A stretch of 64,000 nt of DNA, taken from the NCBI GenBank assembly GCA_964435495.1, contig CAYSZK010000003.1:2870-66869 (forward strand). Reading direction: 5' to 3'. The translations under genes were made by a program, and so were the position numbers. Shown in pieces: positions 6,486 through 44,140 of this stretch. How positions within the stretch are numbered: position 1 is the first letter of the stretch; each line of letters begins with the position of its first letter. The notes under the pieces were generated by a model. It saw only the letters and a program-made list of their open reading frames with translations. It made no database searches and had not been told where the DNA came from. Origin of the DNA: an uncultured Verrucomicrobiales bacterium (GTDB taxonomy: Bacteria; Verrucomicrobiota; Verrucomicrobiia; JADLBR01; JAIBCM01).

Positions 6486-6590
6486 GGGTTGTCGGATTTA
6501 GCGCGTAAACCATTACGTTGAATCAGTGCCCCCGCCTGTCAACCCTTTGGGGCGCGCTGGTCCCCACCGCTTTCGTATGGGGTTCTGGCA

Positions 6591-6710
6591 GGAAAGTGGA
6601 AGCAGCCCCCGCCACTTCAGGTTGTGCCGTCGATAAATGGGGTCTCCGTAAGGAAGTGGCGGGGCCGCCGCTTAACGCGTGGGATGGACCAAGCGGAGCG
6701 GCAAGGGCGG
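6591..6710. repeat. Copy A of a conserved roughly 120-bp GC-rich stem-loop repeat
   Basis: It is near-identical to 8321..8440 (3 mismatches or indels). A perfect 14-15-bp stem (GCCCCCGCCACTTC / GAAGTGGCGGGGC) encloses a roughly 33-nt loop (AGGTTGTGCCGTCGATAAATGGGGTCTCCGTAAG). Confidence 0.85.
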
Positions 6711-6798: not shown

Positions 6799-8271
6799 TC
6801 AGCGGCCACGGCGCGCGAAGGGAACCAGAACCGCAATGCCGGCCAGCGCCGGCATCACCGTGCCCGGTTCGGGGATCGCGGTCACGACCAGTTCGATGTT
6901 GTTGCCGTTGAGCTGCAACAGGCCGTTCCATGAGAAGCCAATCGTGCCCGCGGTGACCCCGCCCAGCCCCCCCGCGAGGTTGGTGCTGGTGAAGAGCGTG
7001 TAGGTGGTGGCGAACAGGCCCGCCTGCTCGGTGAAGGTGAAGTCGGTGAACTCCAGGGTGTTGATGGAAAGGATGCCCGTGAGCACATTGATCCGGTCGC
7101 CGGTCAAGCCAATGTCGAACAGCAGGTCCCCCGGCTCAATGGCCGTGAGGTCCAGAACGCCGGTCAGGAGCGAGAGATCGAGGTCCTCGATTGTGCCGTC
7201 CCCGCCGGGGGCCAGGCGTCCGCCGGCCTGGACAGTGATTCCGACCTCATTGGTTTCGAGGTTGATGGCGCCGGTGCCGCCGAGGGTGGAGTTTGTCGCC
7301 ACGGTGTAGGCGCCCGCGCTGTTGTGCCTGCCGTTGATCAGGAGCGTGCCGCCGCCCTGGACTGTTGTCGTGCCTTCCAGCGTGTTGGTGCCGGTGAATG
7401 TCAACGTCCCGGTCCCATCCTTGATGAAGGAGCGTTCGCCGGCGGCGTTCGGGTGGTCGGGCATGGCGCCGCTGAAGGTGGTGTTGTTGGTTTGGTTGAT
7501 TCGGAACGTGCCGCCACCGTTGCCGCCACTAAAGGTAAGATCCCCGCTGCCGGAAAGGGCGCCGAGGGTGGTGGTGACGTTCGTGGCGGTGGAAACATTC
7601 ATCGTGGTGCCGAGCGCCAGGACAACATTCAGATTGGGCTGATTGAAGGTTCCGGTGAGGTTGTCGATGTTCAAAGTGCCGTTTGAGACTGTCACCGTGG
7701 TGGGCGCCGAGAACGTCACGGTGGATCGGATGCCCAAGTTTCCGATGCCCGTTTTCACGAAGTCGCCGGAAACCGCCATGTTGTTCAGTCCCAGGTCCAC
7801 GGCCGCGGTGGTAACGTTTTCCACTTCCACAACAGCGCCCGCCGTGAAGGCCAGGGTGGAACCGCTCAAGCCAATGGTGCCATTGGTGCTCTGGCTGGTT
7901 CCCAGGCGCCATCGGATTCCGCCGATGGAAAGGGGGGCGGAGATCGAGATATTCTGGTTGTTTGCCGTGAATGAATTGGTGGCGACGGTGAAGACCATGG
8001 TCGAGTTGCTGGTCCCCCCGGCTGTCGCAAAGTCCGTTGTGGCGCTCACGCCCCCGTCGGTCGCCGTCCAGTTGGAGCCCTGAATCGAACTGCCGTTGTA
8101 AAGGCCGTACTGTGGCGTCACGCCATCGGTGTCGAAATAGAGGAGCTGGCCCTGCGCCTGGGCGGTTCCGAAGACAGGTGCCGCCAACGCGGCGGCCCTG
8201 TGGATAAACTTTGCCCCTTGGTTTTTCACGGACGTCAATCTGAGGCCGGGCCCGCCGGGAGTCAAGGGCAT
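6799..8271 (-). CDS. PEP-CTERM sorting-domain protein (secreted, Ser/Thr/Gly/Asn-rich beta-repeat)
   Basis: C-terminus PEPGTVMPALAGIAVLVPFARRGR shows a PEP motif, a TM helix and an Arg cluster. The body has low-complexity T/G/N/S-rich repeats. Confidence 0.75.
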   Translation of the reverse strand: MPLTPGGPGLRLTSVKNQGAKFIHRAAALAAPVFGTAQAQGQLLYFDTDGVTPQYGLYNGSSIQGSNWTATDGGVSATTDFATAGGTSNSTMVFTVATNSFTANNQNISISAPLSIGGIRWRLGTSQSTNGTIGLSGSTLAFTAGAVVEVENVTTAAVDLGLNNMAVSGDFVKTGIGNLGIRSTVTFSAPTTVTVSNGTLNIDNLTGTFNQPNLNVVLALGTTMNVSTATNVTTTLGALSGSGDLTFSGGNGGGTFRINQTNNTTFSGAMPDHPNAAGERSFIKDGTGTLTFTGTNTLEGTTTVQGGGTLLINGRHNSAGAYTVATNSTLGGTGAINLETNEVGITVQAGGRLAPGGDGTIEDLDLSLLTGVLDLTAIEPGDLLFDIGLTGDRINVLTGILSINTLEFTDFTFTEQAGLFATTYTLFTSTNLAGGLGGVTAGTIGFSWNGLLQLNGNNIELVVTAIPEPGTVMPALAGIAVLVPFARRGR

Positions 8272-8320
8272 TTGCTATCAAATGTCTCAATAGATACCAT
8301 TGCCCCCGGGGCCCTTCGGC

Positions 8321-8440
8321 GGAAAAGTGGAAGCGGCCCCCGCCACTTCAGGTTGTGCCGTCGATAAATGGGGTCTCCGTAAGGAAGTGGCGGGGCCGCC
8401 GCTTAACGCGTGGGATGGGCCAAGCGGAGCGGCAAGGGCG
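8321..8440. repeat. Copy B of the roughly 120-bp stem-loop repeat
   Basis: Direct-orientation near-identical copy of 6591..6710. It sits immediately upstream of the PEP-CTERM gene start. Confidence 0.85.
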
Positions 8441-8687
8441 GTGTCTGGGTAAGGAATTGCGGTGTGCCGGAGATAATCGGCGGGCGTGAGAAGGCGCAGG
8501 CCCGAGGCGGGCCGGGGCGCGGAAGCGGTGGGCCGGGGCTCTGGGGCGTCGGAAAGGAGCGCGCTGGGGGTTGGGGGTTGGGGCTGGGAGGCGCAACGGG
8601 AGTGCTCTTTTGTTTGCGGGTTTTGAGGGCGGGCGGGGGGCCGGGGTCAGAACAGGAGGGCGTTTCCAGTATTCCAATTGCGTCCGA

Positions 8688-9134
8688 CTACGGGGCGCGA
8701 TACGGGTCCGGTCCGGGATGGGTGGAGATCGGGGATGCGCGGAGATTTCCCGAGTAGAGAGGCGCGCAGCCGCAGACGCGCTGGAAGCGGTCGGGGTTGT
8801 CGAGGAAGGCGCGGAGTTTCTGGTAGGGCGTGGGGTTGTGGGCGGCGGGCGTGCCGTGGGGGCAGACGACCACTTCCCGAAGCGGGGCGGTCTCGCGCCA
8901 ATAGAGGAAAGCGGTCAGGCCGATGACGGCCACCGCGGCGGCTTTCGCAAAAACGACCAAACGCGTGCGCAGGGTGGTGCGGAGGTTTTCGCGGTTGCGC
9001 TCGGCGCGGAGGGCGGCGGTTACGCGGGCAAAGCCGTCGGCCGGGGCGGCGCGGCCGATGGCGAGGCGCAACGCGGCGACGGCCTGGCTGTCGGGGTCGT
9101 CGCCGGAGGAACGCGTTGGGGGGCCGGGGTTCAT
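8688..9134 (-). CDS. Hypothetical small membrane protein
   Basis: ORF with one predicted TM helix (VVFAKAAAVAVIGLTAFLYW). I recognised no family. It could be a GC artefact. Confidence 0.25.
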   Translation of the reverse strand: MNPGPPTRSSGDDPDSQAVAALRLAIGRAAPADGFARVTAALRAERNRENLRTTLRTRLVVFAKAAAVAVIGLTAFLYWRETAPLREVVVCPHGTPAAHNPTPYQKLRAFLDNPDRFQRVCGCAPLYSGNLRASPISTHPGPDPYRAP

Positions 9135-9272
9135 CTATTTGTACTTGCGATTACGCTAGAGCGGGAGGACCGGGGACACGAAAGTTGGAATCAACCCACC
9201 CGTTCGACATGCCGATGGGAACGCATCGCGTCTTCCGCCCAGCGGCGCAGGGCGGCGAGAACGGCGCTCCGG

Positions 9273-9662
9273 TCAGGCCAGACGAGCACGGCCGAACTCA
9301 ACAATCTCACCGGCACAGGTGATCGCCTCCCTGCTTTGCAGTGCGCCGTAGTGCTCGAACGGGGGGCCTTCGGGATGCCCGTAGGCGTAGCGGGGCGCGA
9401 TGTAATAGGCGTCCAGGACCCGCGCCTTGTCCAGAAGCTCGCCACCCGCGGCGAGGGCGGCGGGCAGGTCCGCGAGCAGGCGCGCGACGACGTGTCCCCA
9501 AGCCTCCTGGCCGCGATTCAAGTGAAGGGCCTTCACCGCCTTTTCAGCGGCTTGCTGGGAGGCGAAGCAGGCCCATTCGTGGCGTCCGGAAGCCGCCGAA
9601 TCGCGGGCTTGCTCCAAATCGCGTTCCGCTTGGCGGAACCAGTCTGTGTCGCGATTGGCCAT
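9273..9662 (-). CDS. HEPN domain-containing protein
   Basis: MANRDTDWFRQAERDLEQA...AAEKAVKALHL...YIAPRYAY is a typical HEPN (COG2250-like) layout. The ATG at 9662 is supported by reverse-complement reading. Confidence 0.65.
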   Translation of the reverse strand: MANRDTDWFRQAERDLEQARDSAASGRHEWACFASQQAAEKAVKALHLNRGQEAWGHVVARLLADLPAALAAGGELLDKARVLDAYYIAPRYAYGHPEGPPFEHYGALQSREAITCAGEIVEFGRARLA

Positions 9663-9721
9663 GGGGGATGGTCGACAGTAAGCGGGCGGTTCCCCGCGGT
9701 CAAGATGAGCTGCCGGGGGCT

Positions 9722-10025
9722 CCAGTGTCCTGTTCATTAAATATGGGGGCAAAATCTGCGAGACAAAATGGCGCGAAACGAGGCGTGCCGAGGGGAGTGG
9801 ATCGGATGGATCCTCGACCTGAGGCACAACGAAGTGTCGCGTCATTTGGGCCGCAGCCCTCCGGCGGCAGCCTCCGGGCGACAGCCCTTCGGGTCGTGGT
9901 TCTTTTGGCCTGGGGCCGCGTTGCTCGTCGGTCACAGATCGCCACGGATAGGCTCCCTCCTCGCGCCTTGCCCCAGGCCAAAATCCCTCACGAATTTTGC
10001 CCCCATATTTAATGAGCAGGACACT
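9722..10025. mobile_element. MITE-like element with 32-bp terminal inverted repeats and no coding capacity
   Basis: Left TIR is AGTGTCCTGTTCATTAAATATGGGGGCAAAAT (9723-9754). Right TIR is ATTTTGCCCCCATATTTAATGAGCAGGACACT (9994-10025), with 1 mismatch. There is an inner inverted pair TTTTGGCCTGGGGC / GCCCCAGGCCAAAA. The TIRs are locally AT-richer than the flanks. Confidence 0.5.
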
Positions 10026-10256
10026 AGCAACTGGCATCTCGCTGCGCGGACCGGATTTCCCGGCGCGAGGCGGCAGGTGTCAAGGTCAAGGACTGATACC
10101 CCAGGGGTCCTGAATGGCGCTTAGCCTCACCGCGACGGTGGCGCACTGAACCCGACGAGGAACGCCGAACACCCGCGCGACACAAAGGCGCCAGGGCTCG
10201 ATTGGGGAATTCCCACAGTGCCGTTGCACCTGAATCGCGGGGGGCTTGGCAGTGCC

Positions 10257-11537
10257 TCAGGCGTAGCAGTCCCCAAACAGGCCCTCGGCCCATCGGAACA
10301 TATCGACGTAGTTCTCCGAGTTGGCTGCGTCCGCCTCACCAAAGGACTCCGCGACGCGGACCATCGCCTTGGCCACACCATCATACTGGTAGGTTGCGGT
10401 CAGCCACGACGCCGACTTGGACGTGATGGGGCTGTAGCACGCCGACATCGTCGTAGGGGAAGGATCGGGCGGATTCCCGCCTATCCACCGAAGAATCGCG
10501 TCCGCGCAGACTTTGGCTTGGGAATTCGCCATCGTACCGGACTTCGGCTGGCCCGTCGCCTGCGAATCACCGAGGACATGCACCCCGGGAACGCGCAAGG
10601 ACTCATAGGAAAGGGGATCAACCGCCGCCCAGCGGGCGCCATTCGCCGTGTCCACCAGCCCGGCGTCGAACACAATCCGGCCCGCCTTATGCTCCGGGAT
10701 GAAGTTGACGACGGCGCCGTTGAAGGTGCCGGCTTCCGTCACAAGGGAACGGCCGGAGGAATCCACGGCGGTTACAGGCGTGCCAGGCCGGTAATCGACG
10801 ATTCCCTTGAATGTCTTGGAAAACGCCTTGCTGAAGGTTTCCGGTTCCGCCTGGATCGAGGGGTTGGCATCCAGCACCACGACCTTGCCGCCAAGTTTCT
10901 TGCGCTTGATATAATCCGCCACAACGCACGCCCGCTCGTAAGGTCCGGGCGGGCAGCGATACGGCGCCTTGGGGATGTTCATGAGGAATGTCTTCTTCTT
11001 CTTCATCCCGGCGAGCATTTTGCGGAGCAATTGGGTCTGGTCCCCGGCAATCCACGCGTGGGGAGTCAGCAGTGGGTCGTAGCTTCCCGCCGGAGTGACA
11101 AAATCGACCCCGGGGGATAGCACAACCCGGTCACAGGACAGCATCCTGCTTCCGCCCGCCGTCTCCACCGTAACCGACATGGGATTGGTGCCGACCGCAA
11201 CAGCCCGGCCTTGGACGAATTCAACACCATGCACCGACTGCAGCGATGCGAAACTCATCTGGATATCCGGGAGGTCCATCACCTTGGCTACCACGAGGTT
11301 CGAGAGGATGCAGGAGTAATGGAACGGGTTGGTGTCCACCAGCGTCACCGAGACGGCCTTGCCGCCCCACACCTTGAGATACTTTGCCACCGTCGCTCCG
11401 CCAAAACCTCCGCCGACGACCACCACGCGTGGCGGCAACGACTGGGCGCGAGCCCTGCGCGGCCAGCCGGTGCAAACCGCGCCGGCTCCCGCCGCGCCAA
11501 TCCATTTTACAAAACTTCTACGATCCATGTGCTTCAT
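10257..11537 (-). CDS. fccB: Flavocytochrome c sulfide dehydrogenase, flavoprotein subunit
   Basis: Tat signal (RRSFVKWIGAAGAGAV). FAD-binding GGGFGG motif. The ATG at 11537 has a GGGAGA ribosome-binding site 8 nt upstream. Similarity across the full length. Confidence 0.8.
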   Translation of the reverse strand: MKHMDRRSFVKWIGAAGAGAVCTGWPRRARAQSLPPRVVVVGGGFGGATVAKYLKVWGGKAVSVTLVDTNPFHYSCILSNLVVAKVMDLPDIQMSFASLQSVHGVEFVQGRAVAVGTNPMSVTVETAGGSRMLSCDRVVLSPGVDFVTPAGSYDPLLTPHAWIAGDQTQLLRKMLAGMKKKKTFLMNIPKAPYRCPPGPYERACVVADYIKRKKLGGKVVVLDANPSIQAEPETFSKAFSKTFKGIVDYRPGTPVTAVDSSGRSLVTEAGTFNGAVVNFIPEHKAGRIVFDAGLVDTANGARWAAVDPLSYESLRVPGVHVLGDSQATGQPKSGTMANSQAKVCADAILRWIGGNPPDPSPTTMSACYSPITSKSASWLTATYQYDGVAKAMVRVAESFGEADAANSENYVDMFRWAEGLFGDCYA

Positions 11538-11565
11538 TTTGCCATCTCCCTTTCGATCGGAATTC

Positions 11566-11916
11566 TCAGTCATCGTCGTCTTCATCTCCACCGCCCAAGG
11601 ATGCCAGGTAGGTCGAGATCGCGAGCAATTGCTGGTCGGAGTATCCCCTCGCCTGGAGGTCCATGATAGAGTCCACTTCCTTGCGCCGCTTCATCTCGAG
11701 CAGTTCCCGGTACAACTCCGACGCGCCCTCCCCGGTGATCGACTCGAAGCCCCGCCCCTTGCTCGCGGGCCCGGCGTGGCACTGGAAGCACGACGCCGCC
11801 ATCAGCCGCCCCGCCGGGGGCGGCGGATCCGCCGCCCCCAAGTGGGGCACGAACACAGCCATCACCATGCCGCCCGCCAGGACGGCCCCGCTCACCGCAT
11901 GAATTCGACGTTTCAC
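11566..11916 (-). CDS. fccA: Flavocytochrome c sulfide dehydrogenase, monoheme cytochrome c subunit
   Basis: Signal peptide plus a single CFQCH heme-binding motif. It lies directly upstream of fccB. The acidic C-terminal tail is DEDDDD. Confidence 0.7.
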   Translation of the reverse strand: MKRRIHAVSGAVLAGGMVMAVFVPHLGAADPPPPAGRLMAASCFQCHAGPASKGRGFESITGEGASELYRELLEMKRRKEVDSIMDLQARGYSDQQLLAISTYLASLGGGDEDDDD

Positions 11917-14647: not shown

Positions 14648-14725
14648 GCGTGGAAGCGGCCCCGCCACTTCCTTGCGGAGACCCCATTTATTGACGGAAC
14701 AACCTGAAGTGGCGGGGGCCGTGGC
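14648..14725. repeat. Copy C (inverted) of the stem-loop repeat
   Basis: Same stem arms as copies A and B, with the loop sequence reverse-complemented (TTGCGGAGACCCCATTTATTGACGGAACAACC). It sits between the LacI stop (14744) and the ECF sigma start. Confidence 0.8.
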
Positions 14726-24157: not shown

Positions 24158-25015
24158 TCAGGCGGGCTCCTTCGCGGGGGCGGGTGGCGGCCCCATGCGC
24201 CAGGCTGGCTGGATTTCGCAGGCGCCGCAATGGACGCATTCCATGCAGCGGATGCAGCGGGGATCGTCGGCCCGGACCTTGGAACTGACGCCGAAATCGC
24301 AGGTGTCGCCGCAGCGGCCGCAGTCGCGGCAGCGTTCGGGGAAAAAGCGCACCGAAAAGAGCGAGAAGCGGTTGAACAGGCCGAAGATGGCGCCGAGCGG
24401 GCAAAGGAGGACGCACCACGGGCGGCGGATGAAGAACATCGCGCCGAGCACCGCGCCCAGGACGGAGAGTTTGATGGCATTGGGCCAGACAACCGGCGCG
24501 CCCGCGAACGCCTGGCTGGCGGCGTGGGGGAGGGAGGCTTCAAGCGCGCCAGCCGGACAGACGCGGCAGAAGAAGAGCGGGTGTGCTTCGCCCCAGAACC
24601 AGGGGACGGCGACGACAAGACCGGCGAGCACGGCGTACCGGAGATGCGTCATCCAGTATGGCGGGTCCCATTTGGGCGTGGGAACCTTGGCGGCAAGGTC
24701 CTGGAGCAAGCCAAAGGGGCAGGCCCACCCGCACAAGGCGGTGCCGGCAAGCGCGCCAGCCAGGACAAGCGTGCCCAGCGCGAGGAACGGCATCAGATGC
24801 AGCGCGCTGAACTGGGCGAGCACGCCGATGGGACAGGCGAACGTGGCCAGCGGACACGCATAGCAATGGAACACAGGCGCGCACACCGAGTGCGTGCGCA
24901 GGCCCGCGGGACTGAGCCATGCCACGAGGAACAACGATTGCACCCAGAGCCTGTGGCGCGAGAGTTTCGAGGCGGGCGTGTTGAAGGAAAGTTGAGCCAT
25001 GGACGCCATGACCAA
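24158..25015 (-). CDS. Membrane-bound 4Fe-4S polyferredoxin (NapH/MauN-like)
   Basis: Four or more TM helices with two ferredoxin-type clusters (CxxCxxCxxxC-like: CRDCGRCGDTC and CIRCMECVHCGAC), plus the CPLATFACP and CGWACPFG motifs typical of the NapH family. Confidence 0.7.
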   Translation of the reverse strand: MVMASMAQLSFNTPASKLSRHRLWVQSLFLVAWLSPAGLRTHSVCAPVFHCYACPLATFACPIGVLAQFSALHLMPFLALGTLVLAGALAGTALCGWACPFGLLQDLAAKVPTPKWDPPYWMTHLRYAVLAGLVVAVPWFWGEAHPLFFCRVCPAGALEASLPHAASQAFAGAPVVWPNAIKLSVLGAVLGAMFFIRRPWCVLLCPLGAIFGLFNRFSLFSVRFFPERCRDCGRCGDTCDFGVSSKVRADDPRCIRCMECVHCGACEIQPAWRMGPPPAPAKEPA

Positions 25016-25028
25016 ATGGTCACTGTAT

Positions 25029-25409
25029 TCAGGTGGGACACCGGGCTTGCGGCGTCCCGGTGTAGGTCAGCCGCAGGACGCCCTCGGGCGTGCGAGCCAG
25101 GCCGGAGCGCGCCACTTCGAGAACAAGCTCGGGCTCGGCCTTGAGGGTGGACACGGTCCTGCGGACGACGATCTCGCTTGGCGCCTCTTGGCTGCCCATC
25201 AAGCCGGGCATTCCGGGCTCGCCGGGTTCGAGGCCGGGCCCGGCGCCGGGCGGAGGGGGCGGGGGCGTTTCCCGGGTTTCGCGCTCGAAGGTGACAGTCT
25301 GGTGATGGCCCATCGCGCCAAACACAAGCATGAACGCGCCGGCGGACACGAGCAGCGACGCGGCGAACGTGCGGCGGACCGGGTGGGAGGCCGGCGCGGA
25401 CGGGTTCAT
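25029..25409 (-). CDS. Hypothetical small membrane-anchored protein
   Basis: Start MNPSAP. One TM helix (FAASLLVSAGAFMLVFGAM), a poly-Pro linker and a C-terminal beta-rich domain. It lies immediately downstream of tRNA-Sec. I recognised no family. Confidence 0.35.
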   Translation of the reverse strand: MNPSAPASHPVRRTFAASLLVSAGAFMLVFGAMGHHQTVTFERETRETPPPPPPGAGPGLEPGEPGMPGLMGSQEAPSEIVVRRTVSTLKAEPELVLEVARSGLARTPEGVLRLTYTGTPQARCPT

Positions 25410-25430
25410 GGCGCGGCGCCCCGCGAAGAA

Positions 25431-25526
25431 TGGCGGAGGCGAATGGGAGTCGAACCCACCCGGGACCTTTCCAGGCCCCACACTGGTTTTGAAGACCAGG
25501 AGCGCCACCGGACGCCTGTCACCTCC
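25431..25526 (-). tRNA. selC: tRNA-Sec (selenocysteine tRNA, anticodon TCA)
   Basis: Reverse complement reads GGAGGTGACAGGCGTCCGGTGGCGCTCCTGGTCTTCAAAACCAGTGTGGGGCCTGGAAAGGTCCCGGGTGGGTTCGACTCCCATTCGCCTCCGCCA. It has an 8-bp acceptor stem, anticodon loop CTTCAAA (UCA), a long variable arm, a GGTTCGACTCC T-loop and an encoded CCA, and is 96 nt long. Confidence 0.8.
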
Positions 25527-25541
25527 AAAAATCGCATGCGG

Positions 25542-27158
25542 TCAATCTCCTGTTTGCCGTCCGTCCATTTGCGCCTGGACCGCTTTGTAAAACATCATGA
25601 CCGGCGATCCCCCAAAAGCAATCGCGCTCCACGCCGCGTCGTCGATTTCGTCCTGGCTGAATCCCATTGCGCGGGCCTTTTGGATGTGCTGGACGGCGCA
25701 GGGTTCGCACTTGGACAGAACCGACAAGGCCACGGCAATGGCCTGCTTGGCCGGTGCGTCAAGCCCCTTGGGCCTGCCCGCCGATTGCAGAAACGCCATG
25801 AACCGTTTCTCGGTGTCCTGGATGGCGCTCCCGGAAACGCCCGGCGCCCGCGCGGCGTCCGGCGGCGCGGCATCGGTTTCCGCGCAGCAGGCGGTTTCGG
25901 CGCCGGTGGCGCCGGTGGCGGGTGGGGCAGGCGGGGGGGCGGCGCGCGGCATGACACGTTCCTGGCGGGTTGTTAGAGTCACCATGCCCGTGCCCTTTCC
26001 GGTGGCACGTCCGATGACCGCGGCGGCGGGCACGCCGCGGGCGTGAAGGGCGGTGACGAGGGCGGGGGCGCGGTCGTGAGGGATGGCGATGAGGAGGCCG
26101 CCGGAGGTTTGGGGATCGAAGCAAACGTCGAGCGCGACGGGGTCAAGGCCTTCCGCGGAGCGGACCTGGCCGCCGGCGGCGGCGCGGTTGCGTTCGGTGG
26201 CGCCGGGGATGACGCCTTCGGCGGCGCGGGCCAGGGCGCCGGGGAGCAGGGGGATGTCGTCCCAGACCAACTCGGCATCGACGCCGCTGTCGCGGGCCAT
26301 TTCGGCAAGGTGCCCGAGGAGGCTGAAGCCGGTGACGTCGGTGCAACCGTTGGCGCCGTGGGCGAGCATGAGTTCGGCGGCGGTGTTGTTGAGGGCGGCC
26401 ATCGAGGCGGCGGCGGCCGCGATCTCGTCGGGACCGGCGCGGCCAATCTGTGCGGCAAAGGCGAGGATTCCCGTGCCGAGGGGTTTGGTGAGGACCAGCG
26501 CGTCGCCGGGCCGGGCGCCGGCGCGGGCGGTCACGCGGTCCGCGTCGATCTCCCCGGTGACGGCAAAGCCGGCTTTGATCTCGCTGTCCTGGATGCTGTG
26601 GCCGCCGATGACCGAGACGCCGGCCTCGGCCATCTTGTCGAGGCCGCCGCGGAGGATGTCGCGCATGACGCTGGTGGGGACGGCGCCGGCGGGGAAGCCG
26701 ATGATGGACAGGGCGGTCAAGGGGCGGCCACCCATGGCATAGACGTCGCTGACGGAGTTGGCGGCGGCGATCTGGCCGAAGGTGTAGGGATCATCGACCG
26801 AAGGACTGAAGACATCGACCGTCTGGACCAGGCACCGGGCGCCGTCGAACCGGTAAACCCCGGCGTCGTCCCCGGCGGCAACGCCGAGGAGCACGCGCGG
26901 GTCGTCGGGCGCGGGAAGGCCCTGGACGGCCTCTTTGAGGGTGGCCAGGTCGATCTTGGAGGCGCAGCCGGCCTTTTGGACAAGCCGCGTGAGGCAGACG
27001 GGACCAGGCGCGGGTTCGAGGTGTTCGCCGGCGCAATGGCAGACGTCCTTTTCCTTGAGAAGCTCGCACGGGCAGGCGAGGCGCGGGTCGCACACGCAAT
27101 GGCCCAGCGCGATGGAGCGGCGCATGACGCGCTGGCGTTTTTCGAGGTCCCTGGCCAT
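25542..27158 (-). CDS. selD: Selenide, water dikinase (selenophosphate synthetase), Cys form, with an N-terminal Cys-rich extension and a C-terminal AhpD/carboxymuconolactone-decarboxylase-like domain
   Basis: SelD core with LTRLVQKAGCASKI (E. coli: LTQYSHGAGCGCKI) and a PurM-like fold. The N-terminal roughly 50 aa carry three CxC pairs (CVC, CPC, CHC). The C-terminal roughly 110 aa carry an AhpD-like CxxC (SKCEPCAVQH). Confidence 0.8.
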   Translation of the reverse strand: MARDLEKRQRVMRRSIALGHCVCDPRLACPCELLKEKDVCHCAGEHLEPAPGPVCLTRLVQKAGCASKIDLATLKEAVQGLPAPDDPRVLLGVAAGDDAGVYRFDGARCLVQTVDVFSPSVDDPYTFGQIAAANSVSDVYAMGGRPLTALSIIGFPAGAVPTSVMRDILRGGLDKMAEAGVSVIGGHSIQDSEIKAGFAVTGEIDADRVTARAGARPGDALVLTKPLGTGILAFAAQIGRAGPDEIAAAAASMAALNNTAAELMLAHGANGCTDVTGFSLLGHLAEMARDSGVDAELVWDDIPLLPGALARAAEGVIPGATERNRAAAGGQVRSAEGLDPVALDVCFDPQTSGGLLIAIPHDRAPALVTALHARGVPAAAVIGRATGKGTGMVTLTTRQERVMPRAAPPPAPPATGATGAETACCAETDAAPPDAARAPGVSGSAIQDTEKRFMAFLQSAGRPKGLDAPAKQAIAVALSVLSKCEPCAVQHIQKARAMGFSQDEIDDAAWSAIAFGGSPVMMFYKAVQAQMDGRQTGD

Positions 27159-27164
27159 GGCGGG

Positions 27165-28337
27165 TCAGGCGGGGGCGCCGGCTTCCGTGCGGATGGTTTC
27201 AAAAAGGGCTTCGAGCCGGACGGCGATCCGCCCGGTGTCCGAGGGGGAGTAATCCGTTTCGATGCGGAGGTACGGCAGGGCCAGCCTGTCCCCGGCAAGC
27301 CGTTTGACGAGATCGGACTCGATATCGTAGGTGAGGCAGGCCTGCCAGACCAGGTCGATGACGCAGGCCGCGCGGTACTCGCGCGCCAGGCGGGCGATGG
27401 ATTCGAGCCGGGCGTTGTTGGGCGACATCACCGAGCACGGAATGGCCAGGTATTTGTCCGCCAGCGCCTCAATGGGATCGGGATTGGCCTCGTCCACGTC
27501 GTCGAGGATCGGTTTGAGGCCGGTGCAATTTTCCTGGCAGACGATGAGCCCGCCGCGGTCCTCGATGAGGTCCACCACGCGCTCCGCCCCGTGCACCACG
27601 GGCACGCCGGTAAGCAGCACGCGAACGCGTCCAGCCAGGTCCGGGCGCGATGGCGCGGCTTCCCGCTCCCGGAGGATGGCCTCGTAGCGGGCGAGGTCCT
27701 CGGGAATGCCGGAGATGATGGACTTGAGATCAAGCAATTCGCGCCCCGTGAGCGGGGGCGGATCGAGGCGCATGAGGCCGGCCAGGCGGCGGCGCAGGCG
27801 GCGCTCGCGGTTCATGAGCCGGATGGCGTCCCGGATGCGGGCGGTGGTGATTTTGACGCGGAACCGGTCCTCGAGCACCTGGATGAGGCGGTTCATTTCG
27901 GACGTCCACTGGGCGCGGGCGCCGGGATCGCCGGGACGGTGGGGGAGAGCGAGGATGTGCATGGGCCGGGACTCGGCCATGATCTCGAACATCTTTTTCT
28001 TGCCGTCGCAGGTTGTTTCGGCGACGACGAGCGCGGCTGACTCAAGGAATGGGTTGGATTTTCCGACGTGGTAGCCGAAGGTGGACTTGATCAGGGGGCA
28101 GAGATTGGAGGGCAACCGGGTTTCCGCGTCGGGGATGGTTTCCGGTTCGCCGCCGCAGAGGCAGACTGGAACGGCATTGGCGGCCATGATGATTTCGCGC
28201 GGGGTGAATTCGCACATGATGCCGACGATGGGGCGGCCTTGTTGGGCGGCCTGTCCGGCATGGGCGCGGCAATGGCCGAACATGCCGTCGAACCACGCCA
28301 GGGACGCGGGGCGTGGGGAAGCGGTCAGCGCGGGCAT
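27165..28337 (-). CDS. 2-hydroxyacyl-CoA dehydratase family protein, second HgdB-like paralog (390 aa)
   Basis: VGIMCEFTPREIIMAANAVPVCLCGGEP and ETTCDGKKKMFE match the HgdB/BcrB-type Fe-S subunit family. It sits 6 bp upstream of selD. Confidence 0.6.
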   Translation of the reverse strand: MPALTASPRPASLAWFDGMFGHCRAHAGQAAQQGRPIVGIMCEFTPREIIMAANAVPVCLCGGEPETIPDAETRLPSNLCPLIKSTFGYHVGKSNPFLESAALVVAETTCDGKKKMFEIMAESRPMHILALPHRPGDPGARAQWTSEMNRLIQVLEDRFRVKITTARIRDAIRLMNRERRLRRRLAGLMRLDPPPLTGRELLDLKSIISGIPEDLARYEAILREREAAPSRPDLAGRVRVLLTGVPVVHGAERVVDLIEDRGGLIVCQENCTGLKPILDDVDEANPDPIEALADKYLAIPCSVMSPNNARLESIARLAREYRAACVIDLVWQACLTYDIESDLVKRLAGDRLALPYLRIETDYSPSDTGRIAVRLEALFETIRTEAGAPA

Positions 28338-28385
28338 GGCAGGGCTCTCCGAAGCGTGCGGGCTTGGCGGCGCGCGGGGCTGCGT

Positions 28386-30260
28386 TCAGGGTTTCTTGAA
28401 CCAATCCTCGCTCTGCTTGTATTCAAACGCGCCGAGCTTGGCGTCCACTTCCACGCGGAATTCGCCGTCGAGACTGGAAGGCACACGCCACGTGTACCGG
28501 CAGGTGCCGCCTCATCCATACTCAAATTTGCCGGACTCGATCTTCTTGCCGTCCCGGTTGAGGATGGTGAAGATTGGGGCGGACTGGCGCTCGTTGTTGC
28601 GGCGGGCCCCGGCTTCGTAGGTCTGGCCTTCCTTGTCTTCGAGGGTGAATTCAATATAGGCCGTATTGTTGCCGCGCCAATCGACATCGACTTTCGCCCT
28701 GAGGCCAGATCCCACGCCTGTGGCCACGGCGGCGCCGGGGCGGATTTCGATTTTGCGGGAGTTGCCGGAGGACGCGCCGTTGAGGGTCCAGTCGGCGCCG
28801 CCTGCCTGGTGGCGCAGGCGGTAATACCCGATCTGGTAGGTGCCCGGCGCGAGGTCCCAGCCGTCTTTGGCGCCGGCGTCCAGGTAACCGCAGCAACCGC
28901 GGCTGAGGACGGCGAGTTCCAGGTGGGGGGACTCTGGTTTCAGTTTGCCGGCGTCCATGCGGACCTCCTGAAGGAGCAGCGTGGAAGCGTCCGGCTCGGA
29001 GTTGACCTGGAAAAATTTTCCGGCGAGGGCGAGCAATGGGGTTAGCGGCAAGATTTCGCCCCGGTAATCGAAGCGTTCGTTGCCGTCGAGGTCGAGGGCG
29101 AGGAGATCGTAGCCGGGACGCTCGTCTCCGTCGGACGATCGCTGGTTGTAGGGCAGCAGGTCGAGCGTGAACCCGGCCTCGATGCGCCCGTTGTTGCTGG
29201 CGTCAGTCACCGCGGCGAGCAGTTTGCGGGGGCCGGCGGCGGTTTTCCCTTCCCAGTGGCAGGCCGGCGCGACTTCGAGGTAACCGGGGGTGGAGGAGTT
29301 TTGCGTGTACACCCGGCCTTTGAACTCGATCTCCAGAGGGACTTTGCCTTCCGCCGCTGACGACTGGATTTCAGCGTCGCCGAATTTGTAGTAGCCGTAG
29401 CGCTCGGCCGATTCGCCGGTGTACTCATTGGAGGCGCTCAGGACCTTGGCCTTGGCCAGGTCGCCGCTGCCATCCACATCGACCAGCAACCGGGCCCTGC
29501 CCAAGTTGTCGGCGTCCATGAGCATGAACACGTCCCGCCCGCCGATCTTGGCCGAGAAGTAGAGCGGCTTTTTCACGTCCGGCGCGTTTTTGATGCCTTC
29601 GGGCGGGGCGTAAAGCAGGCGGGCGTTGCGTTCCGAGGCGTAGGCGAGATATTGCTGCAACTCGGCGGTTCCGCGCTTTTTCAAGGGCGTCTTCTCCCCA
29701 AAACCGACCTGATCCATGGACCGGGAGGCGGGGGCCGATGCCGCGGCGGGCGCGGGGGATTGGGATGTTTCGGGCTTGGCCGGGGACGGGGCGGCGGGCT
29801 GTTCGGTCGCGCGCTGGGCTTGGAGTTCCCTCTGCCACTCGTCGTACCGGCGCCAGAAATCGGTCCTGGCGGCGTCGATCTCGATGGCGGTGGACCCGGT
29901 GGCGGCGAGGATGAGCTTTCCTTTCTCGATGCCGACCAACTCGAACTCCTTGCCGGGGGCAAGCTTCATCGAGCCGACGGTCTTGCCGTTGATATGGAGC
30001 GGCACCTCCGAAGGCGCGAGGACGGAGACGGCCTTGGGCCATTGCTCCGGGTCTTTGGCGATCTCGGCGAGCTTGGCGGCGTCGGCGGCCGGACCGGATT
30101 GCGCGGGGGCGGCGGCGGCCCAGGCCCAGGCCAGCGCGGCGGCCAGGATAAGAAAGGGATCGAGCGCGCTGGCTGGATTCCGACCCGCAAACACCCGAGG
30201 CAATGGCCTGATCCCCTGCATAGCGGCGCCATGGTGGCGGATTCCTGGCGCGCTGGTCAA
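28386..30260 (-). CDS. Candidate selenoprotein: secreted protein of unknown function with an in-frame TGA (Sec?) 42 codons before the final TGA
   Basis: The annotated ORF ends ...KFEYG then TGA at 28512..28514. The same frame continues GGTCRYTWRVPSSLDGEFRVEVDAKLGAFEYKQSEDWFKKP to a stop at 28386..28388. The extension has GC3-rich codons and a protein-like composition. Its FEY motif echoes KFEYG just before the TGA. A signal peptide starts at the alternative start 30221 (MQGIRP...AAALAWAWAAAAPAQS). Confidence 0.5.
28470..28511 (-). promoter_or_regulatory. Candidate bacterial SECIS-like hairpin immediately 3' of the in-frame UGA
   Basis: The mRNA reads UGA GGC GGC ACC UGC CGG UAC ACG UGG CGU GUG CC. 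The outer stem is GGCAC/GUGCC and the inner is GCC/GGC, around a CACGUG palindrome. Only manual folding was done. Confidence 0.3.
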
Positions 30261-30399
30261 GGCAAATTATTTGTTTTCTCCAAAACGTACGGAGCGGGGC
30301 GCCCGCGCCGCCGGCACGCCTTTCGGAGAAGCCGGCCCCGGCCAACCGTCCCAAGCGCCGCCGCCCGCGTGAAATGGAAAATGGAATCTTGATTCGGGG

Positions 30400-31893
30400 G
30401 TGGGACGGGGGCAGGATGGGGGCATGGACGGCATGCCGGACCCGGCGCTGTTGCGCGCGATTCCGCCGGTGGAGGCGTTGGTGGCGGCGAATGCGGGCCG
30501 GGAGGAATTTGCGGGTTTGTCGCGGGAGCGGTTGACGGGTCTGGTGCGGGAAACGGTGGAAGGCGTGCGGCGGGAGGCGCGGACGGGGTCGCTCGCGCCG
30601 GGGGGGGAAGGCGGGGAGGGATGGGCGGCGTGGGTGCGGCGGGAGATCGCGGCGCGGCTGCTGGGGCGTGCGCGGGAATCGGCGCGGGCGCATTACCGTC
30701 GGGCGATCAACGCGACGGGCGTGATTTTGCACACGGGCCTTGGCCGGGCGGTGCTGGCGGAGGAGGCGCTCGCGCAGGTGGGCGCGGAATTGCGCGGGTA
30801 TTCGGTGCTGCAACAGAGCGTGGAGACGGGGGAACGGACGCGGCGGGACCTGGGAGTGGAACGGTTGTTATGCCTGTTGACGGGCGCGGAGGCGGCGACG
30901 GTGGTGAACAACAACGCGGCGGCCACGATGCTGGCGCTGGCGGCGATGGCGGCGGGGCGCGAGGTGCTTGTGTCGCGGGGCCAGTTGATCGAGATCGGCG
31001 GGTCGTTCCGGCTGCCGGACGTCATGGCGGCGAGCGGCGCGAAGCTGGTGGAGGTGGGCACCACGAACAAGACCCACCCGCGCGATTACGCCAACGCGCT
31101 CACGGAGCGGACGGCGGCCATCATGCGGGTGCATCCGAGCAATTACCGCATCCACGGTTTTGTCAGGGAGGTGGGCACGGCGGAGCTTGTCGCCATCGCG
31201 AAGCCGCGCGGAATCCCCGTCATCGACGACCTGGGCGCGGGCGCGTTGCTTGACCTTTCGCGGTTTGGGTTCGAGAAGGAGCCGACGATCCAGGAATCGG
31301 TGCGGGCGGGGGCGGACGTGGTGTTGTCGAGCGCGGACAAGCTCATTGGCGGGCCGCAGGGCGGGATCATCCTGGGGCGGGCGGCGGTGGTCGCGGCCAT
31401 CCGGAAGCATCCGCTGGCGCGGATCGTGCGCGTGGACAAGGTGACGCTGGCGGCGCTGGAGGCGACCCTGCGCCTGTTTCTTGACGAAGGCCTGGCGTTG
31501 CGGCGGGTTCCGACGCTGCGGATGCTGTGCCGCACGGTGGAGGAGATCGGCGCGGAGGCCGCGGCGATGGCGGACTGGTTGCGGGCGGAGGGGGGCGGCG
31601 CGTTGCCGGCGGAGGTGGCGTTGGAGGACGGGGCGTCGTTCATGGGGGGCGGGTCGCTGCCGGAGCAGGAGCTTCCGACGCGGCTGGTCGCGGTCCGTCC
31701 GCGGGCGATGGGGGCCGCGGAGCTGGCGGCGCGGCTGCGGCGGGGCGTGCCGGCGGTGTTTTGCCGCGTCCGGCATGAGGGGGCGTTGTTCGACCCGCGA
31801 ACGATGCTGGCCGGGGAGGCGGCGGAGGCGGCGCGGGCGGTGGCGCGTTGCCTGGTGGAGGCGCCTGGCGCGGAGAGCGCGGCGGCGGCTTGA
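30400..31893 (+). CDS. selA: L-seryl-tRNA(Sec) selenium transferase
   Basis: PLP-dependent SelA core (NATGVILHTGLGRA...SADKLIGGPQGGII) and the typical N-terminal tRNA-binding region. The true start may be 30424 or 30433. Confidence 0.85.
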   Translation: MGRGQDGGMDGMPDPALLRAIPPVEALVAANAGREEFAGLSRERLTGLVRETVEGVRREARTGSLAPGGEGGEGWAAWVRREIAARLLGRARESARAHYRRAINATGVILHTGLGRAVLAEEALAQVGAELRGYSVLQQSVETGERTRRDLGVERLLCLLTGAEAATVVNNNAAATMLALAAMAAGREVLVSRGQLIEIGGSFRLPDVMAASGAKLVEVGTTNKTHPRDYANALTERTAAIMRVHPSNYRIHGFVREVGTAELVAIAKPRGIPVIDDLGAGALLDLSRFGFEKEPTIQESVRAGADVVLSSADKLIGGPQGGIILGRAAVVAAIRKHPLARIVRVDKVTLAALEATLRLFLDEGLALRRVPTLRMLCRTVEEIGAEAAAMADWLRAEGGGALPAEVALEDGASFMGGGSLPEQELPTRLVAVRPRAMGAAELAARLRRGVPAVFCRVRHEGALFDPRTMLAGEAAEAARAVARCLVEAPGAESAAAA

Positions 31894-31898
31894 CCCGG

Positions 31899-33842
31899 AT
31901 GGCGACCCGGCGGATTCACATCACCCTGGGCACGGCCGGGCATATTGACCACGGCAAGACGGCGCTGGTCCGGAATCTGACCGGGTGCGAGACCGACACG
32001 CTCAAGGAGGAGAAAGAGCGGGGGATGTCGATTGACCTGGGGTTCGCGCCGTGCCGGATCGAAGGCCTGGAAGCCGGGCTGGTGGACGTGCCGGGGCACG
32101 AGAATTTCGTGCGGACGATGGTGGCGGGCGCGACCGGGATGGACGGGGTGATTCTTGTCGTCGCGGCCGACGATGGCGTGATGCCGCAGACCCGCGAGCA
32201 TCTGGACATCCTGTGCCTGCTGGGGGTGCGGCACGGCGTGGTGGCGCTGACGAAGATCGACCGCGTCGAGGCGGGGCGGGTGGAAGAGGTGGCCGCGGAA
32301 GTCCGCGGGCGGCTGCGTGGCACGTTCCTGGAGCCGGCGGAAATCTGTCCGGTGTCGAACACGACGTTTGAAGGCTTGAATGATCTCCGGGCGGCGCTGG
32401 TCCGGTTGATGGAGCGCGTGCCGCCGCGCGGGACGGGAGGTGTGTTCCGGCTGCCGGTGGACCGGGCGTTTGCGGTGAAGGGGTATGGCGCGGTGGTGAC
32501 GGGGATACCGGCGCACGGCCGGGTGGCGGTGGGCGCGGAGCTGGAGATGCATCACCAAGGCGGGGAAAAGCCGGTGGCCGGGCGGTTGCGGGCGGTGCAG
32601 GTGTACCGGGAGGCGGGAGAGACGGCGCAGGCGGGCGAGTGCGCGGCCCTCAATGTGCCGCAATGGGACCACGCGCGGACGCGGCGCGGGGATGTCGTGG
32701 CGGCGCCGGGCTGTTTTGTCGCGGGCGAGTGGCTGGTGTGCCGCCTTGCGTTGCTCGGGCGGGAAGGGTTGGACCTCAGGAACGGCGGGCAGGTTCGCGT
32801 GCACACGGGGACCGTTGACGTGCCGGGGACGGTGTACCTGGAGCAAGGGCGCCGGATGAATGCGGGAGACGAGGGACTCGTGCAAGTGCGGGTGGCCGCG
32901 CCGATTGTGGCGGGGCCGGGCGATCCCTTCCTTCTTCGCGTCCTGGGTCCGGCGCGCACCATCGGAGGCGGGCGGATCGTGGCGATGCCGGCGCGGAGGT
33001 TGCGGCGGCAGCGTCCGGAGGCGTGGGCCGCGGCGCGGGCGCGGGCCGAGGCGCTTGGGGACCCAATACGGCTGGTGGAGAGTTGCTTGCGCGCGGCCGT
33101 GGGCGGCATCGCCCGCGAACCGGGCCTGGAGTTTGAGGCCAAACTGCGGGCGGACGAAGTGCGGGCGGCGCTTGGGGCGTTGGAAGCCGGGGGCGTGGCG
33201 GTGGCGGTTCCGGGGCAGGGGTATATCCATGGGGAGACCGCGGCGCGTGCGCGGGCGGCGGTGTTGGCGGCGGTGGGGGCGTTTCACCGGGAGCATCCGG
33301 AGAGTCCGGGCCTGGCGCGGGAAAGCGGGTGGGTGCCCACGCTGGGGGAAGGGCCACCTCTGGCGCCGGCGTTGGCGGAGTGGGCGGTGGCGGCACTGTT
33401 GGGGGATGGGGCGTTGGTGAGGGACGGGGCGACGGGGCGGATTGCGTTGCCGGAGCACACGGCGCGGGTGACCGATGCGGACAGGCTGGGGATGGAGGCG
33501 GTGGAGCGGGCGTTTCGGGAACATCGATTTGCTCCGCCGGACGAAACCGGGTTGGCGGCGGCGGGCGGGGTCGGGGTGGAGGAGGCGCGGCGGCTGACGC
33601 GGCTGCTGGAGGAGCGGGGGCGGCTGGTGCGGGTGGGGGCGGGGCTGCTGTTTCACGCGGAGGCGGTGGCCGAGGCGCGCGCGCGGATTGAGGAACACAT
33701 GCGGCGGGAAGGGCGGCTGGAGAGCGTGAAATTCAAGTACCTGGTGGAAACGACGCGCAAGTTCGCGCTGCCGCTTCTGGATTATTTCGACCGCATTGGA
33801 GTCACGCGCCGGGTGGGGAACACGCGGTTTCCGCGGCGGTGA
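31899..33842 (+). CDS. selB: Selenocysteine-specific translation elongation factor
   Basis: G-domain (GHIDHGKTALV, DVPGHENF, TKID), EF-Tu-like domains II and III, and a long winged-helix C-terminal extension that would bind SECIS. The start lies 5 bp after the selA stop. Confidence 0.85.
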   Translation: MATRRIHITLGTAGHIDHGKTALVRNLTGCETDTLKEEKERGMSIDLGFAPCRIEGLEAGLVDVPGHENFVRTMVAGATGMDGVILVVAADDGVMPQTREHLDILCLLGVRHGVVALTKIDRVEAGRVEEVAAEVRGRLRGTFLEPAEICPVSNTTFEGLNDLRAALVRLMERVPPRGTGGVFRLPVDRAFAVKGYGAVVTGIPAHGRVAVGAELEMHHQGGEKPVAGRLRAVQVYREAGETAQAGECAALNVPQWDHARTRRGDVVAAPGCFVAGEWLVCRLALLGREGLDLRNGGQVRVHTGTVDVPGTVYLEQGRRMNAGDEGLVQVRVAAPIVAGPGDPFLLRVLGPARTIGGGRIVAMPARRLRRQRPEAWAAARARAEALGDPIRLVESCLRAAVGGIAREPGLEFEAKLRADEVRAALGALEAGGVAVAVPGQGYIHGETAARARAAVLAAVGAFHREHPESPGLARESGWVPTLGEGPPLAPALAEWAVAALLGDGALVRDGATGRIALPEHTARVTDADRLGMEAVERAFREHRFAPPDETGLAAAGGVGVEEARRLTRLLEERGRLVRVGAGLLFHAEAVAEARARIEEHMRREGRLESVKFKYLVETTRKFALPLLDYFDRIGVTRRVGNTRFPRR

Positions 33843-41742: not shown

Positions 41743-41949
41743 ATTGGGACACGGAAGACTCCGGCCCTGCGGTAGCGCAAGGCATACGCAACTCCACGCG
41801 CCAATCCTGGCAGAATGGCTGGACGCGCGGGCGTGTCAAGCGTTTCGGGGGATTGTTTCGGGGGATTGGCGGCGGCAGTGCTCCCGGCACGCCTCTCGAA
41901 GGAGTTCCGGCGGGAACGGATACTCCCGCAGGGGAGACCGGGACAGGCA

Positions 41950-43988: not shown

Positions 43989-44140
43989 GCGCGAAACTAA
44001 CGCTCAACGGCAAGACGGAAGCGGCGGTTGGCCTGCTTTTCAAACATCTCCGAGTGCTCGGAACGATTCACGCTCAGGCTTGGGATGGCATCCAAGGAGC
44101 GTGCAGGGTGCACGGCGCAGATTTGCACCAGCGACCATGC

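Follow-up and report, generated by a model that had tools for sequence, protein, structure and literature searches.

A probable MITE with a conserved hairpin core between fccB and an orphan HEPN toxin gene of an uncultured Verrucomicrobiales bacterium

INTRODUCTION

What is the short repeat that separates fccB from a solitary HEPN gene in the genome of an uncultured Verrucomicrobiales bacterium, and did its arrival cost the HEPN gene its partner? The locus lies in a stretch of 64,000 nucleotides (contig CAYSZK010000003.1, positions 2,870 to 66,869; all coordinates below refer to this stretch, the window). An inspection of the letters alone had led to the original prediction that a noncoding element of roughly 300 bp with near-perfect terminal inverted repeats (TIRs) is the remnant of a MITE, a nonautonomous derivative of an IS, and that it may have disrupted or displaced the partner gene of the adjacent HEPN gene. 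MITEs are the least catalogued of the bacterial mobile elements. Here, we examine the repeat, its locus, and its relatives in other organisms.

RESULTS

A TIR-bounded repeat between fccB and HEPN

The TIR-bounded repeat at 9724 to 10025 is confirmed as a real feature. Read along the minus strand, fccA (cytochrome c) is followed by fccB (10257 to 11591), 231 nt of spacer, the element, another 61 nt, and the HEPN gene. The features of the locus are as follows:

9724 to 9755, plus strand: left TIR, AGTGTCCTGTTCATTAAATATGGGGGCAAAAT, 5' of the degenerate core; this arm is also present in Logan contig L001
9994 to 10025: right TIR, reading AGTGTCCTGCTCATTAAATATGGGGGCAAAAT on the minus strand, 5' of the intact core; contains the AT-rich TCAT/TAAATA box of the family
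9880 to 9996, minus strand: intact conserved core (covariance model R1, 128.4 bits, E about 2e-30)
9903 to 9916 and 9970 to 9983, minus strand: arms of the 14-bp core stem, which covaries among relatives
9917 to 9969, minus strand: near-invariant internal region of 53 nt, including a small distal hairpin, AUC-CGUGGC-GAU
9753 to 9865, plus strand: degenerate second core, inverted (R1, 49.5 bits, E about 3e-10)
9723 to 9724 (CA) and 10025 to 10026 (TA): possible target-site duplication dinucleotides, by homology with L015/L016 only
9273 to 9662, minus strand: HEPN gene, 129 aa (Pfam PF05168, E = 8e-28), with an intact Rx4H motif, RYAYGH
9194 to 9316, minus strand: MNT (nucleotidyltransferase) stub of 41 codons, VPVRLLSSAVLVWPDRSAVLAALRRWAEDAMRSHRHVERVG*, ending before the catalytic GS..DxD motif

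The element measures 302 bp, and its arms of 32 nt each are complementary at 31 of 32 positions. This is the match originally predicted, with the right arm at the same place; the left arm, however, had been put one base off, at 9723 to 9754. In 100 dinucleotide-preserving shuffles of the window, no inverted pair of this kind arose, not even when 3 mismatches were allowed. The identity of the arms is confined to the ends, falling from 29/30 over the terminal 30 nt to 5 to 7 of 10 across positions 31 to 70 and to random further in. The TIRs had also been called AT-richer than the genome, and this is borne out by their GC contents of 37.5% and 40.6%, against 66% for the window and a host-like 65.5% for the interior; only 0.3% of the window's 32-nt stretches are as AT-rich as the TIRs. 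The predicted hairpin is very stable (-176 kcal/mol for 321 nt). Relative to shuffled sequences, z reaches -9.1 and -8.3 when the whole element is folded and a modest -1.8 and -2.7 when the interior is folded by itself.

The absence of an ORF of its own, as stated in the original prediction, holds in substance. Of the six frames, three run through the element almost without a stop, and one on the minus strand is open from end to end, giving a 105-aa translation. A Pfam search of the element's frames returned no family and no transposase remnant, and the family to which the element belongs lacks a third-codon-position bias.

The MNT partner was truncated downstream of HEPN

In every homologue examined (L008, L010, and L012), an MNT gene lies downstream of HEPN with an overlap of 44 nt. 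The window's MNT stub aligns with the N terminus of the intact 118-aa MNT of the paralogue L008, which comes from the same samples and encodes an 89%-identical HEPN; the nucleotide homology between the two (87%) begins at the HEPN ATG (9662) and extends to about 9194. The truncation of MNT and the element lie on opposite sides of HEPN, some 470 nt apart, and the stub of 41 codons has been kept, which refutes the suggestion that the element disrupted or displaced the HEPN partner. The partner was lost by truncation of the downstream MNT itself and not through the element upstream, and this explains why the HEPN toxin at this locus is an orphan. When the element was removed to reconstruct the empty site, no gene was restored, the site being intergenic. 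We also considered L008 as a natural empty site, but its homology with the window starts exactly at the HEPN ATG and is uninformative on the element.

Apart from that of the source genome, the nearest fccB is 62 to 63% identical, and in the nearest relative with context the synteny (HK-RR, cytochrome c, fccB) stops right after fccB. No terminator-like or promoter-like sites were found in the region. The same HEPN protein is on record in both NCBI and Logan. In line with the assignment of the organism to the Verrucomicrobiota, named relatives of fccB and HEPN bear this label, and an exosortase and a PATR-repeat protein are among the other products of the window.

Assembly support for the two arms

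Two independent k=31 Logan assemblies (SRR10095373 and SRR10095374) cover positions 8599 to 9912 and resume from 10067 on, so that the stretch 9913 to 10066, including the right TIR, is supported by the NCBI assembly alone. Both runs break off at exactly 10067, and the end of L001 is at 9912. Such ends in a k=31 graph imply either a repeat over approximately 9883 to 10096 or a polymorphic segment at 9913 to 10066. Among the sequences that we compared, none of the 31-mers of this stretch recurred. On the left side, L001 passes unbroken and without a graph branch from the flank through the TIR into the interior, which argues against other young copies in that sample. A search for papers citing the run accession returned none.

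The ends of the element do not lead to relatives

Further copies, an IS with matching TIRs, and a direct duplication of 2 to 9 bp immediately outside the ends had been proposed as means of verifying the MITE. None of these was obtained with the ends of the element. No exact direct repeat of 2 to 11 nt flanks it at boundary offsets of -4 to +4; there is only CA on one side and TA on the other, where relatives have TA on both. A second copy of the TIR was absent from the 64-kb window, with up to 9 mismatches allowed, and from other contigs of these samples (about 30 kb), which leaves one copy in the roughly 95 kb examined. A 20-mer TIR core, searched in 596 Gb of GTDB species representatives and separately in the JGI metagenomes, gave two single, nonextending chance matches in each and none in viral contigs (IMG/VR), which also yielded no match to patterns of the conserved core. 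One match to the TIR core, in L004, does extend with an indel, but we rejected it: the organism is AT-rich, the match falls within one of its ORFs (169 aa), and an inverted partner is missing. Neither blastn nor tblastn detected a match in plasmids and phages. Searches of Rfam 15 at E <= 10 with the window's element and with the short form and the L015 long form (both described below) likewise returned nothing relevant, only miRNA-hairpin noise of at most 17 bits.

No autonomous IS with matching TIRs was found in any locus compared or in the plasmid and phage collections, and no transposase or recombinase is encoded within about 10 kb on either side or among the window's ORFs scanned up to about 55.5 kb. 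The window carries another repeat, a 66-nt hairpin family, to which we found no relation of the element. To our knowledge, many accepted MITE families have no known parent. Direct repeats of MITEs fade with age, and copy numbers can be as low as 1 (PMC10969869).

A single copy in the genome with no related IS had been named as an observation that would speak against a MITE. As a guide it would have misled us, since the MITE idea would by then have been discarded. The family became visible via its conserved interior and not via its TIRs.

A dispersed family detected through its open reading frame

The 105-aa minus-strand translation was compared exhaustively by phmmer with 1.84 billion representative proteins. 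At E <= 1e-3, 24 ORFs match the element's open frame, the best with E = 2.5e-9 and 60% identity; one match, P0250, covers residues 6 to 104 of the translation. The matched ORFs are short and unnamed or form N-terminal extensions of real proteins, and they have the block FWPGARREEGAYPQRSVTDEQRSPRPK in common. Several start and end with TIR-like translations, and in some (e.g., P0243) the block precedes 'ALLVGHRS..SLLAPC', the opposite-strand translation of the same core. The 24 ORFs are thus spurious and run through related elements. A six-frame pseudo-protein had no match in a word-indexed catalogue of 5.8 billion proteins, a false negative of the word filter given that the exhaustive search found the family.

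In DNA from five relatives (L015 to L019), four elements could be delimited:

L015, 3036 to 3312: 277 bp, TIRs TAGAACCCATCTCATAAATAGGAGCGGGGCGCG perfect at 33/33 positions, TA at both ends
L016, 10108 to 10384: 277 bp, TIRs identical at 32/33 positions, TA at both ends
L017, 953 to 1114: 162 bp, 28-nt TIRs GGCGTTTGGAAGAACTAAATATACCAGG, TTA duplication
L018, 6082 to 6243: 162 bp, 28-nt TIRs GGCGTTTGGAAGAACTAAATATACCAGG, TAA duplication

The two long elements differ at only 5 of 277 positions (98% identity) and occupy independent loci on separate contigs of one assembly. Similarly, the two short elements, also on separate contigs of one assembly, differ at 4 of 162 positions (97.5% identity). 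The sensor-kinase locus of L018 is shared with L019, from a closely related strain, with flanks that are about 96% identical, and offers a comparison of a filled site, GGGA-TAA-[162 bp]-TAA-GCGG in L018, with an empty one, GGGATAAGCGG in L019. A precise deletion in L019 is an unlikely explanation of this difference because TAA occurs once in L019 and twice in L018. Filled and empty sites are standard evidence for transposition (PMC3184786).

These observations show that the family is mobile: it combines TIRs and a lack of coding capacity with near-identical dispersed copies, target duplications (TNA in the short form and TA in the long form), and strain polymorphism. The near-identical copies, the duplications, and the filled and empty site thereby uphold, at the level of the family, the original inference of a mobile element of the MITE type. 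Small size together with TIRs defines a MITE, and the family has the properties that published criteria list (PMC10969869). The genes beside the relative copies are varied and encode a glycosidase-like protein, a sensor kinase, an H+-PPase, and an enolase. The copies in L017 and L018 sit within the first few codons of a gene, where each adds 165 nt (55 codons) without a stop, so that the host ORF reads through.

Across the relatives and the window, the reconstructed targets are TTAG, CTAA, CTAG, TAA, and TTA. We considered a 4-bp YTAR duplication for the long form and rejected it; each of the three copies would need exactly one mismatch, and two of them are 98% identical, hence young.

Two cores in the window's element

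When searched with the covariance model R1, the window's element contains, in addition to the intact core, a decayed core in inverted orientation, which nhmmer by itself had missed. Along the minus strand, the element comprises, in this order, a TIR (10025 to 9994), the intact core (9996 to 9880), the decayed inverted core (9865 to 9753), and the other TIR (9755 to 9724). L015 and L016 also carry an inverted second core (R1, 68 to 69 bits), and the R1 search found no further core copies in the window, L006, or L008. The window's element is a long form like these two, in which two half-units, each a TIR plus a core, are joined tail to tail.

This anatomy accounts for the internal repeats noted originally. 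The second inverted pair, TTTTGGCCTGGGGC at 9903 to 9916 and GCCCCAGGCCAAAA at 9970 to 9983, is exactly complementary, as had been claimed, and is the stem of the family core. The presumed short palindrome GGATCGGATGGATCC is present at 9799 to 9813 but is no true palindrome, since a loop of 5 nt separates the arms of its 5-bp stem (GGATC/GATCC); it is the distal hairpin of the decayed core.

In the subfamily of L015/L016 and in that of the window alike, near-identical TIRs go together with a far more diverged second core. Since both subfamilies have this asymmetry, the divergence of the second core was probably inherited from master copies and did not arise by decay in place. The right TIR can be aligned with the TIRs of L015/L016 and of L017/L018, a TCAT..AAATA box 19 to 22 nt upstream of the core stem being common to all. 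Alignment at the outer boundary hints that the CA and TA at the ends of the window's copy may represent a TA duplication with one later substitution; the target would then be reconstructed as CTAG and the ends as (C/T)A|G...C|TA.

A hairpin core conserved above the transposon ends

All members possess a core of about 90 nt in which a 14-bp stem encloses 53 nt. The arms of the stem differ between subfamilies and read CCTGGGGC/GCCCCAGG in the window, CCGCTGGC/GCCAGCGG in L017, and GCGTGGCGGC/GCCGCCGCGC in L015. The 53-nt loop is 85 to 91% identical between subfamilies (L015 and L018 versus the window), compared with 42 to 64% for the TIRs. Poor conservation of the TIRs in relatives had been regarded as a further argument against a mobile element, yet it is accompanied here by a core that the subfamilies have in common.

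The RNAalifold consensus comprises 31 pairs, 11 of which show compensatory changes, including one C-G to A-U switch in the distal hairpin. Across eight cores from three subfamilies, 97.2% of cells are paired versus 71% after shuffling and 32 to 45% with slid partners, and 21 of the 31 pairs have changed on both sides, with 0 of 500 shuffles reaching any of these measures. Because the sample is small and pairing is inflated by the fitting of the alignment to the model, we take these statistics as supportive rather than final. The triplets of the internal loop swap together, being GAG/CGA in the window, CGA/GAG in L017 and L018, and GAC/CGA in L015. In the modelled fold, either arrangement would allow tandem G.A pairs. 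G.U pairs occur on the sense strand only, which favors a strand-specific (RNA) fold. The intact core points in the same direction as the host or flanking gene at four of five loci.

We also considered that the core might be conserved as coding sequence. The variable columns, however, are evenly spread over codon positions 1, 2, and 3 (12, 8, and 11 of 30, respectively), so conservation is not due to coding. The core data do not separate maintenance of a palindrome in the DNA from structure in the RNA.

DISCUSSION

Very probably, the repeat at 9724 to 10025 in the spacer between fccB and HEPN is a nonautonomous DNA transposon (MITE) belonging to a dispersed family that was matched in none of the plasmid, phage, and Rfam libraries checked. 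In kind, the element is a bacterial MITE; what is unusual about it is that the structured core is better conserved than the ends. It resembles Nezha, Chunjie, MITEAba12, and QMITE1/2 in being shorter than 500 bp, with TIRs of 28 to 33 nt, AT-rich ends, and no transposase, as well as in the short target duplications, near-identical dispersed copies, filled/empty strain polymorphism, and stable predicted hairpin. In contrast to these, the family shows no similarity to the plasmid, phage, or Rfam libraries, it has no known parent IS, its subfamilies vary in the length of the duplication (TA versus TNA), and conservation of the core (85 to 91%) exceeds that of the TIRs (42 to 64%), which is the reverse of the usual pattern.

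IS5-family subgroups duplicate 2 to 4 bp at TA, TNA, or YTAR. Mobilization of the family would take place in trans through a DDE transposase, and because of these targets an enzyme of the IS5-superfamily type seems the likeliest. The TIRs might be kept alike since both ends must bind the transposase. The likeness to the IS5 superfamily (PF01609, DDE_Tnp_1) lies in the targets reconstructed here, but no IS with matching TIRs was seen; the only DDE_Tnp_1 IS encountered adjoins the L015 copy and was considered as a parent, but its 37-nt TIRs are unrelated. IS630/Tc1-mariner elements likewise duplicate TA, and an IS630-type enzyme is a possible mobilizer of the long form.

The in-frame position of both short-form copies (L017 and L018) in a host ORF is reminiscent of the Rickettsia palindromic elements (RPEs), ERIC, BOX, and QMITE1, which are likewise palindromic and structured. 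The window's copy, however, lies between genes and has a length not divisible by three, the in-frame cases number only two, and the substitutions of this family carry no coding signature. Moreover, RPEs lack clear TIRs and duplications, whereas this family has both. The Correia elements (CREE/NEMIS) of Neisseria offer another parallel, being bounded by TA and situated between co-directional genes, with TIRs that form a long duplex in transcripts. They differ in that their sequence is unrelated, their length is about 100 to 200 bp versus 302 bp, and they contain no such covarying internal hairpin. RNase III cleaves the TIR duplex of Correia transcripts (PMC10969869). By analogy, the same fate is plausible for the window's 32-bp duplex.

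The family appears to inhabit uncultured lineages, probably Verrucomicrobiota and relatives. Recognizing it prevents misannotation, as read-through of its members accounts for no fewer than 24 'hypothetical proteins' and for several spurious N-terminal extensions of real genes. It also illustrates cleanly how a MITE can insert in frame into signal-peptide codons.

The question that the family raises concerns the 53-nt internal sequence of a covarying hairpin that is better conserved than the ends of the transposon. The core is probably kept by selection at the level of the element, most likely as an RNA structure, a view supported by the one-sided occurrence of G.U pairs and by the shared direction of intact core and neighboring or host gene at four of five loci. 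A more far-reaching reading, which we put forward tentatively and consider possible though rather doubtful, is that the core, about 90 nt long, represents a new class of functional structured RNA, carried by MITEs as cargo and kept while the transposon ends were exchanged or diverged into the TA and TNA subfamilies. The covarying helices, the near-invariant purine-rich internal loops that fit tandem G.A pairs, and the restriction of G.U pairs to one strand are in line with this reading. If the core is indeed a functional RNA, the family would not be plain selfish DNA but a mobile RNA gene or cis-regulator, and DNA transposition would here have spread a structured RNA. The window's copy would then place the core RNA in the leader of an HEPN RNase gene that lacks its antitoxin.

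What might the MITE do at this locus? Its intact core is co-directional with fccAB and HEPN and would thus be transcribed in read-through from fccAB or as part of the HEPN leader. Such a transcript might fold into a hairpin of about 300 nt with a terminal duplex of about 32 bp, and this could alter processing or stability, as suggested by the analogy with Correia and ERIC elements. We saw no signs in the window's copy that it is still mobile or has been co-opted.

Alternatively, this copy might have been domesticated as a cis-acting RNA that serves as the 5' leader of the orphan HEPN gene or as a 3' stabilizer or terminator of fccAB, and that might even restrain the HEPN RNase now that its MNT antitoxin has been cut short. 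The intact core does lie on the fccAB/HEPN strand, with the end of the element 61 nt upstream of the HEPN ATG, and its stems covary while its loops are near-invariant; in addition, HEPN has kept its Rx4H motif next to an MNT partner reduced to a stub, and neither an intact duplication nor another copy is found nearby. Yet the same core is carried by plainly mobile copies beside unrelated genes, HEPN homologues elsewhere have no such element upstream, and the region is devoid of terminator-like and promoter-like sites. The 89%-identical HEPN in the same samples comes with an intact MNT, which could neutralize the orphan toxin in trans. On balance, we deem domestication improbable.

Near-perfect inverted repeats around less than 300 bp just upstream of a gene, single-copy here and without a target duplication, are also what one would see in an inverton, in which site-specific recombination would invert the 238 bp enclosed by the 32-nt repeats and so switch HEPN expression. 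The size is typical as well, more than 75% of invertons being under 300 bases (PMC11602134). However, no recombinase is encoded within about 10 kb or among the ORFs scanned to about 55.5 kb, the element has no promoter-like site inside, and L001 shows no branch at the left inverted repeat, so the opposite orientation is absent or rare in that sample. The homologues, moreover, act as transposons, with duplications and an empty site, and we regard an inverton as very unlikely.

Finally, it is scarcely credible that the right arm was made by an assembly artefact or a one-off template-switch inverted duplication, with no family behind it: the Logan contigs do stop at 9912 and 10067 and leave this arm without independent confirmation, but the arms differ at one base and diverge sharply past 32 nt, as those of a fold-back artefact would not, the same two-core, TIR-bounded architecture recurs in L015/L016 from unrelated assemblies, and the stretch missing from Logan holds the intact core, which scores 128 bits against a model dominated by the copies of other organisms.

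In-frame insertion of short MITE copies

Both loci carrying the short form of the MITE have it inside a gene.

L017 953-1114: short-form MITE copy
L018 6082-6243: short-form MITE copy

In both cases the insertion point falls within the first 4-7 codons. One of the genes hit encodes a secreted glycosidase-like protein, the other a Y_Y_Y sensor kinase, and each insertion adds exactly 55 in-frame codons devoid of stops. The translations across the junctions (slashes) read MITL/RRLEEL...FSFSERL/RTILLLAV and MPVRAGI/RRLEEL.../SGCHHAIW. These insertions resemble RPE-like read-through insertions.

Assembly of the MITE region

The Logan contigs, k=31 assemblies of two runs (SRR10095373 and SRR10095374), break at identical coordinates, window 9912/9913 and 10066/10067, leaving 9913-10066 unassembled in these runs. 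This gap could be due to a repeat, to strain polymorphism, or to coverage lost over the hairpin.

Other small elements and repeats

The strain whose site is empty of the short form (L019) carries a 183-nt segment at 9749-9931 that is absent from L018. It is flanked by a direct repeat of ~10 nt (GGTGGCGCGG), is rich in nested inverted repeats (GGTTTCCCAACC/GGTTGGGAAACC and GACTTCCAAGTC/GACTTGGAAGTC), and may represent another small palindromic insertion polymorphism. At L015, a locus with the long form, an IS adjoins a MazEF pair and lies 200 nt from the MITE copy; its ends are unrelated to those of the MITE.

L015 1181-2833: IS bounded by 37-nt TIRs (36/37) and encoding a DDE_Tnp_1 transposase of 443 aa

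An exact 20-nt match to the MITE TIR core at L004 418-450, which grows to 30 of 33 positions once one indel is allowed, was judged a coincidence because it has no inverted partner. The organism is AT-rich and the match sits within one of its coding ORFs, where both the match and the MITE TIR encode ..TNFAPIFN...

The window also holds a 66-nt hairpin repeat (GGCCCCCGCCACTTC...GAAGTGGCGGGGCC; folding energy, -33.5 kcal/mol), which is a separate family unrelated to the MITE and has no match in Rfam.

6605-6668, plus strand: copy
8334-8399, plus strand: copy
14656-14721, inverted: copy
6587-6710 and 8318-8441: extended 124-nt copies

The copies are 95-100% identical and all intergenic in the window, two of them bracketing a PATR/PEP-CTERM-like gene (6799-8271).

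HEPN-MNT module and other gene clusters

9273-9662, minus strand: HEPN gene, Rx4H conserved
9194-9316, minus strand: MNT remnant of 41 codons
L008 4816-5518: paralogous HEPN-MNT

With its HEPN intact and its MNT cut down, the window pair is a degenerate HEPN-MNT toxin-antitoxin module. The paralogue, which comes from the same samples but a different contig, combines a HEPN 89% identical to that of the window with a full 118-aa MNT, which might neutralise the window HEPN in trans.

24161-33839: selenium-utilisation cluster
25431-25526, minus strand: tRNA-Sec, within that cluster
63301-63958: tandem repeat, 150-nt period, within a large ORF (62158-63999, minus strand)
~41000-54000: polysaccharide-synthesis cluster (WecG, GT1, GT2, GT4, Wzy, flippase, UDP-galactopyranose mutase)

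The selenium-utilisation cluster also encodes SelA, SelB, and a fusion of a SelD-like AIRS protein with a CMD domain. Since its translation resembles RCC1-like blades (..WGDNSEGQLGDGS..), the tandem repeat is coding and not a non-coding array. Third-position GC is lower in the polysaccharide-synthesis cluster (~0.72) than in the remaining window (~0.82), and this cluster may have been acquired horizontally.
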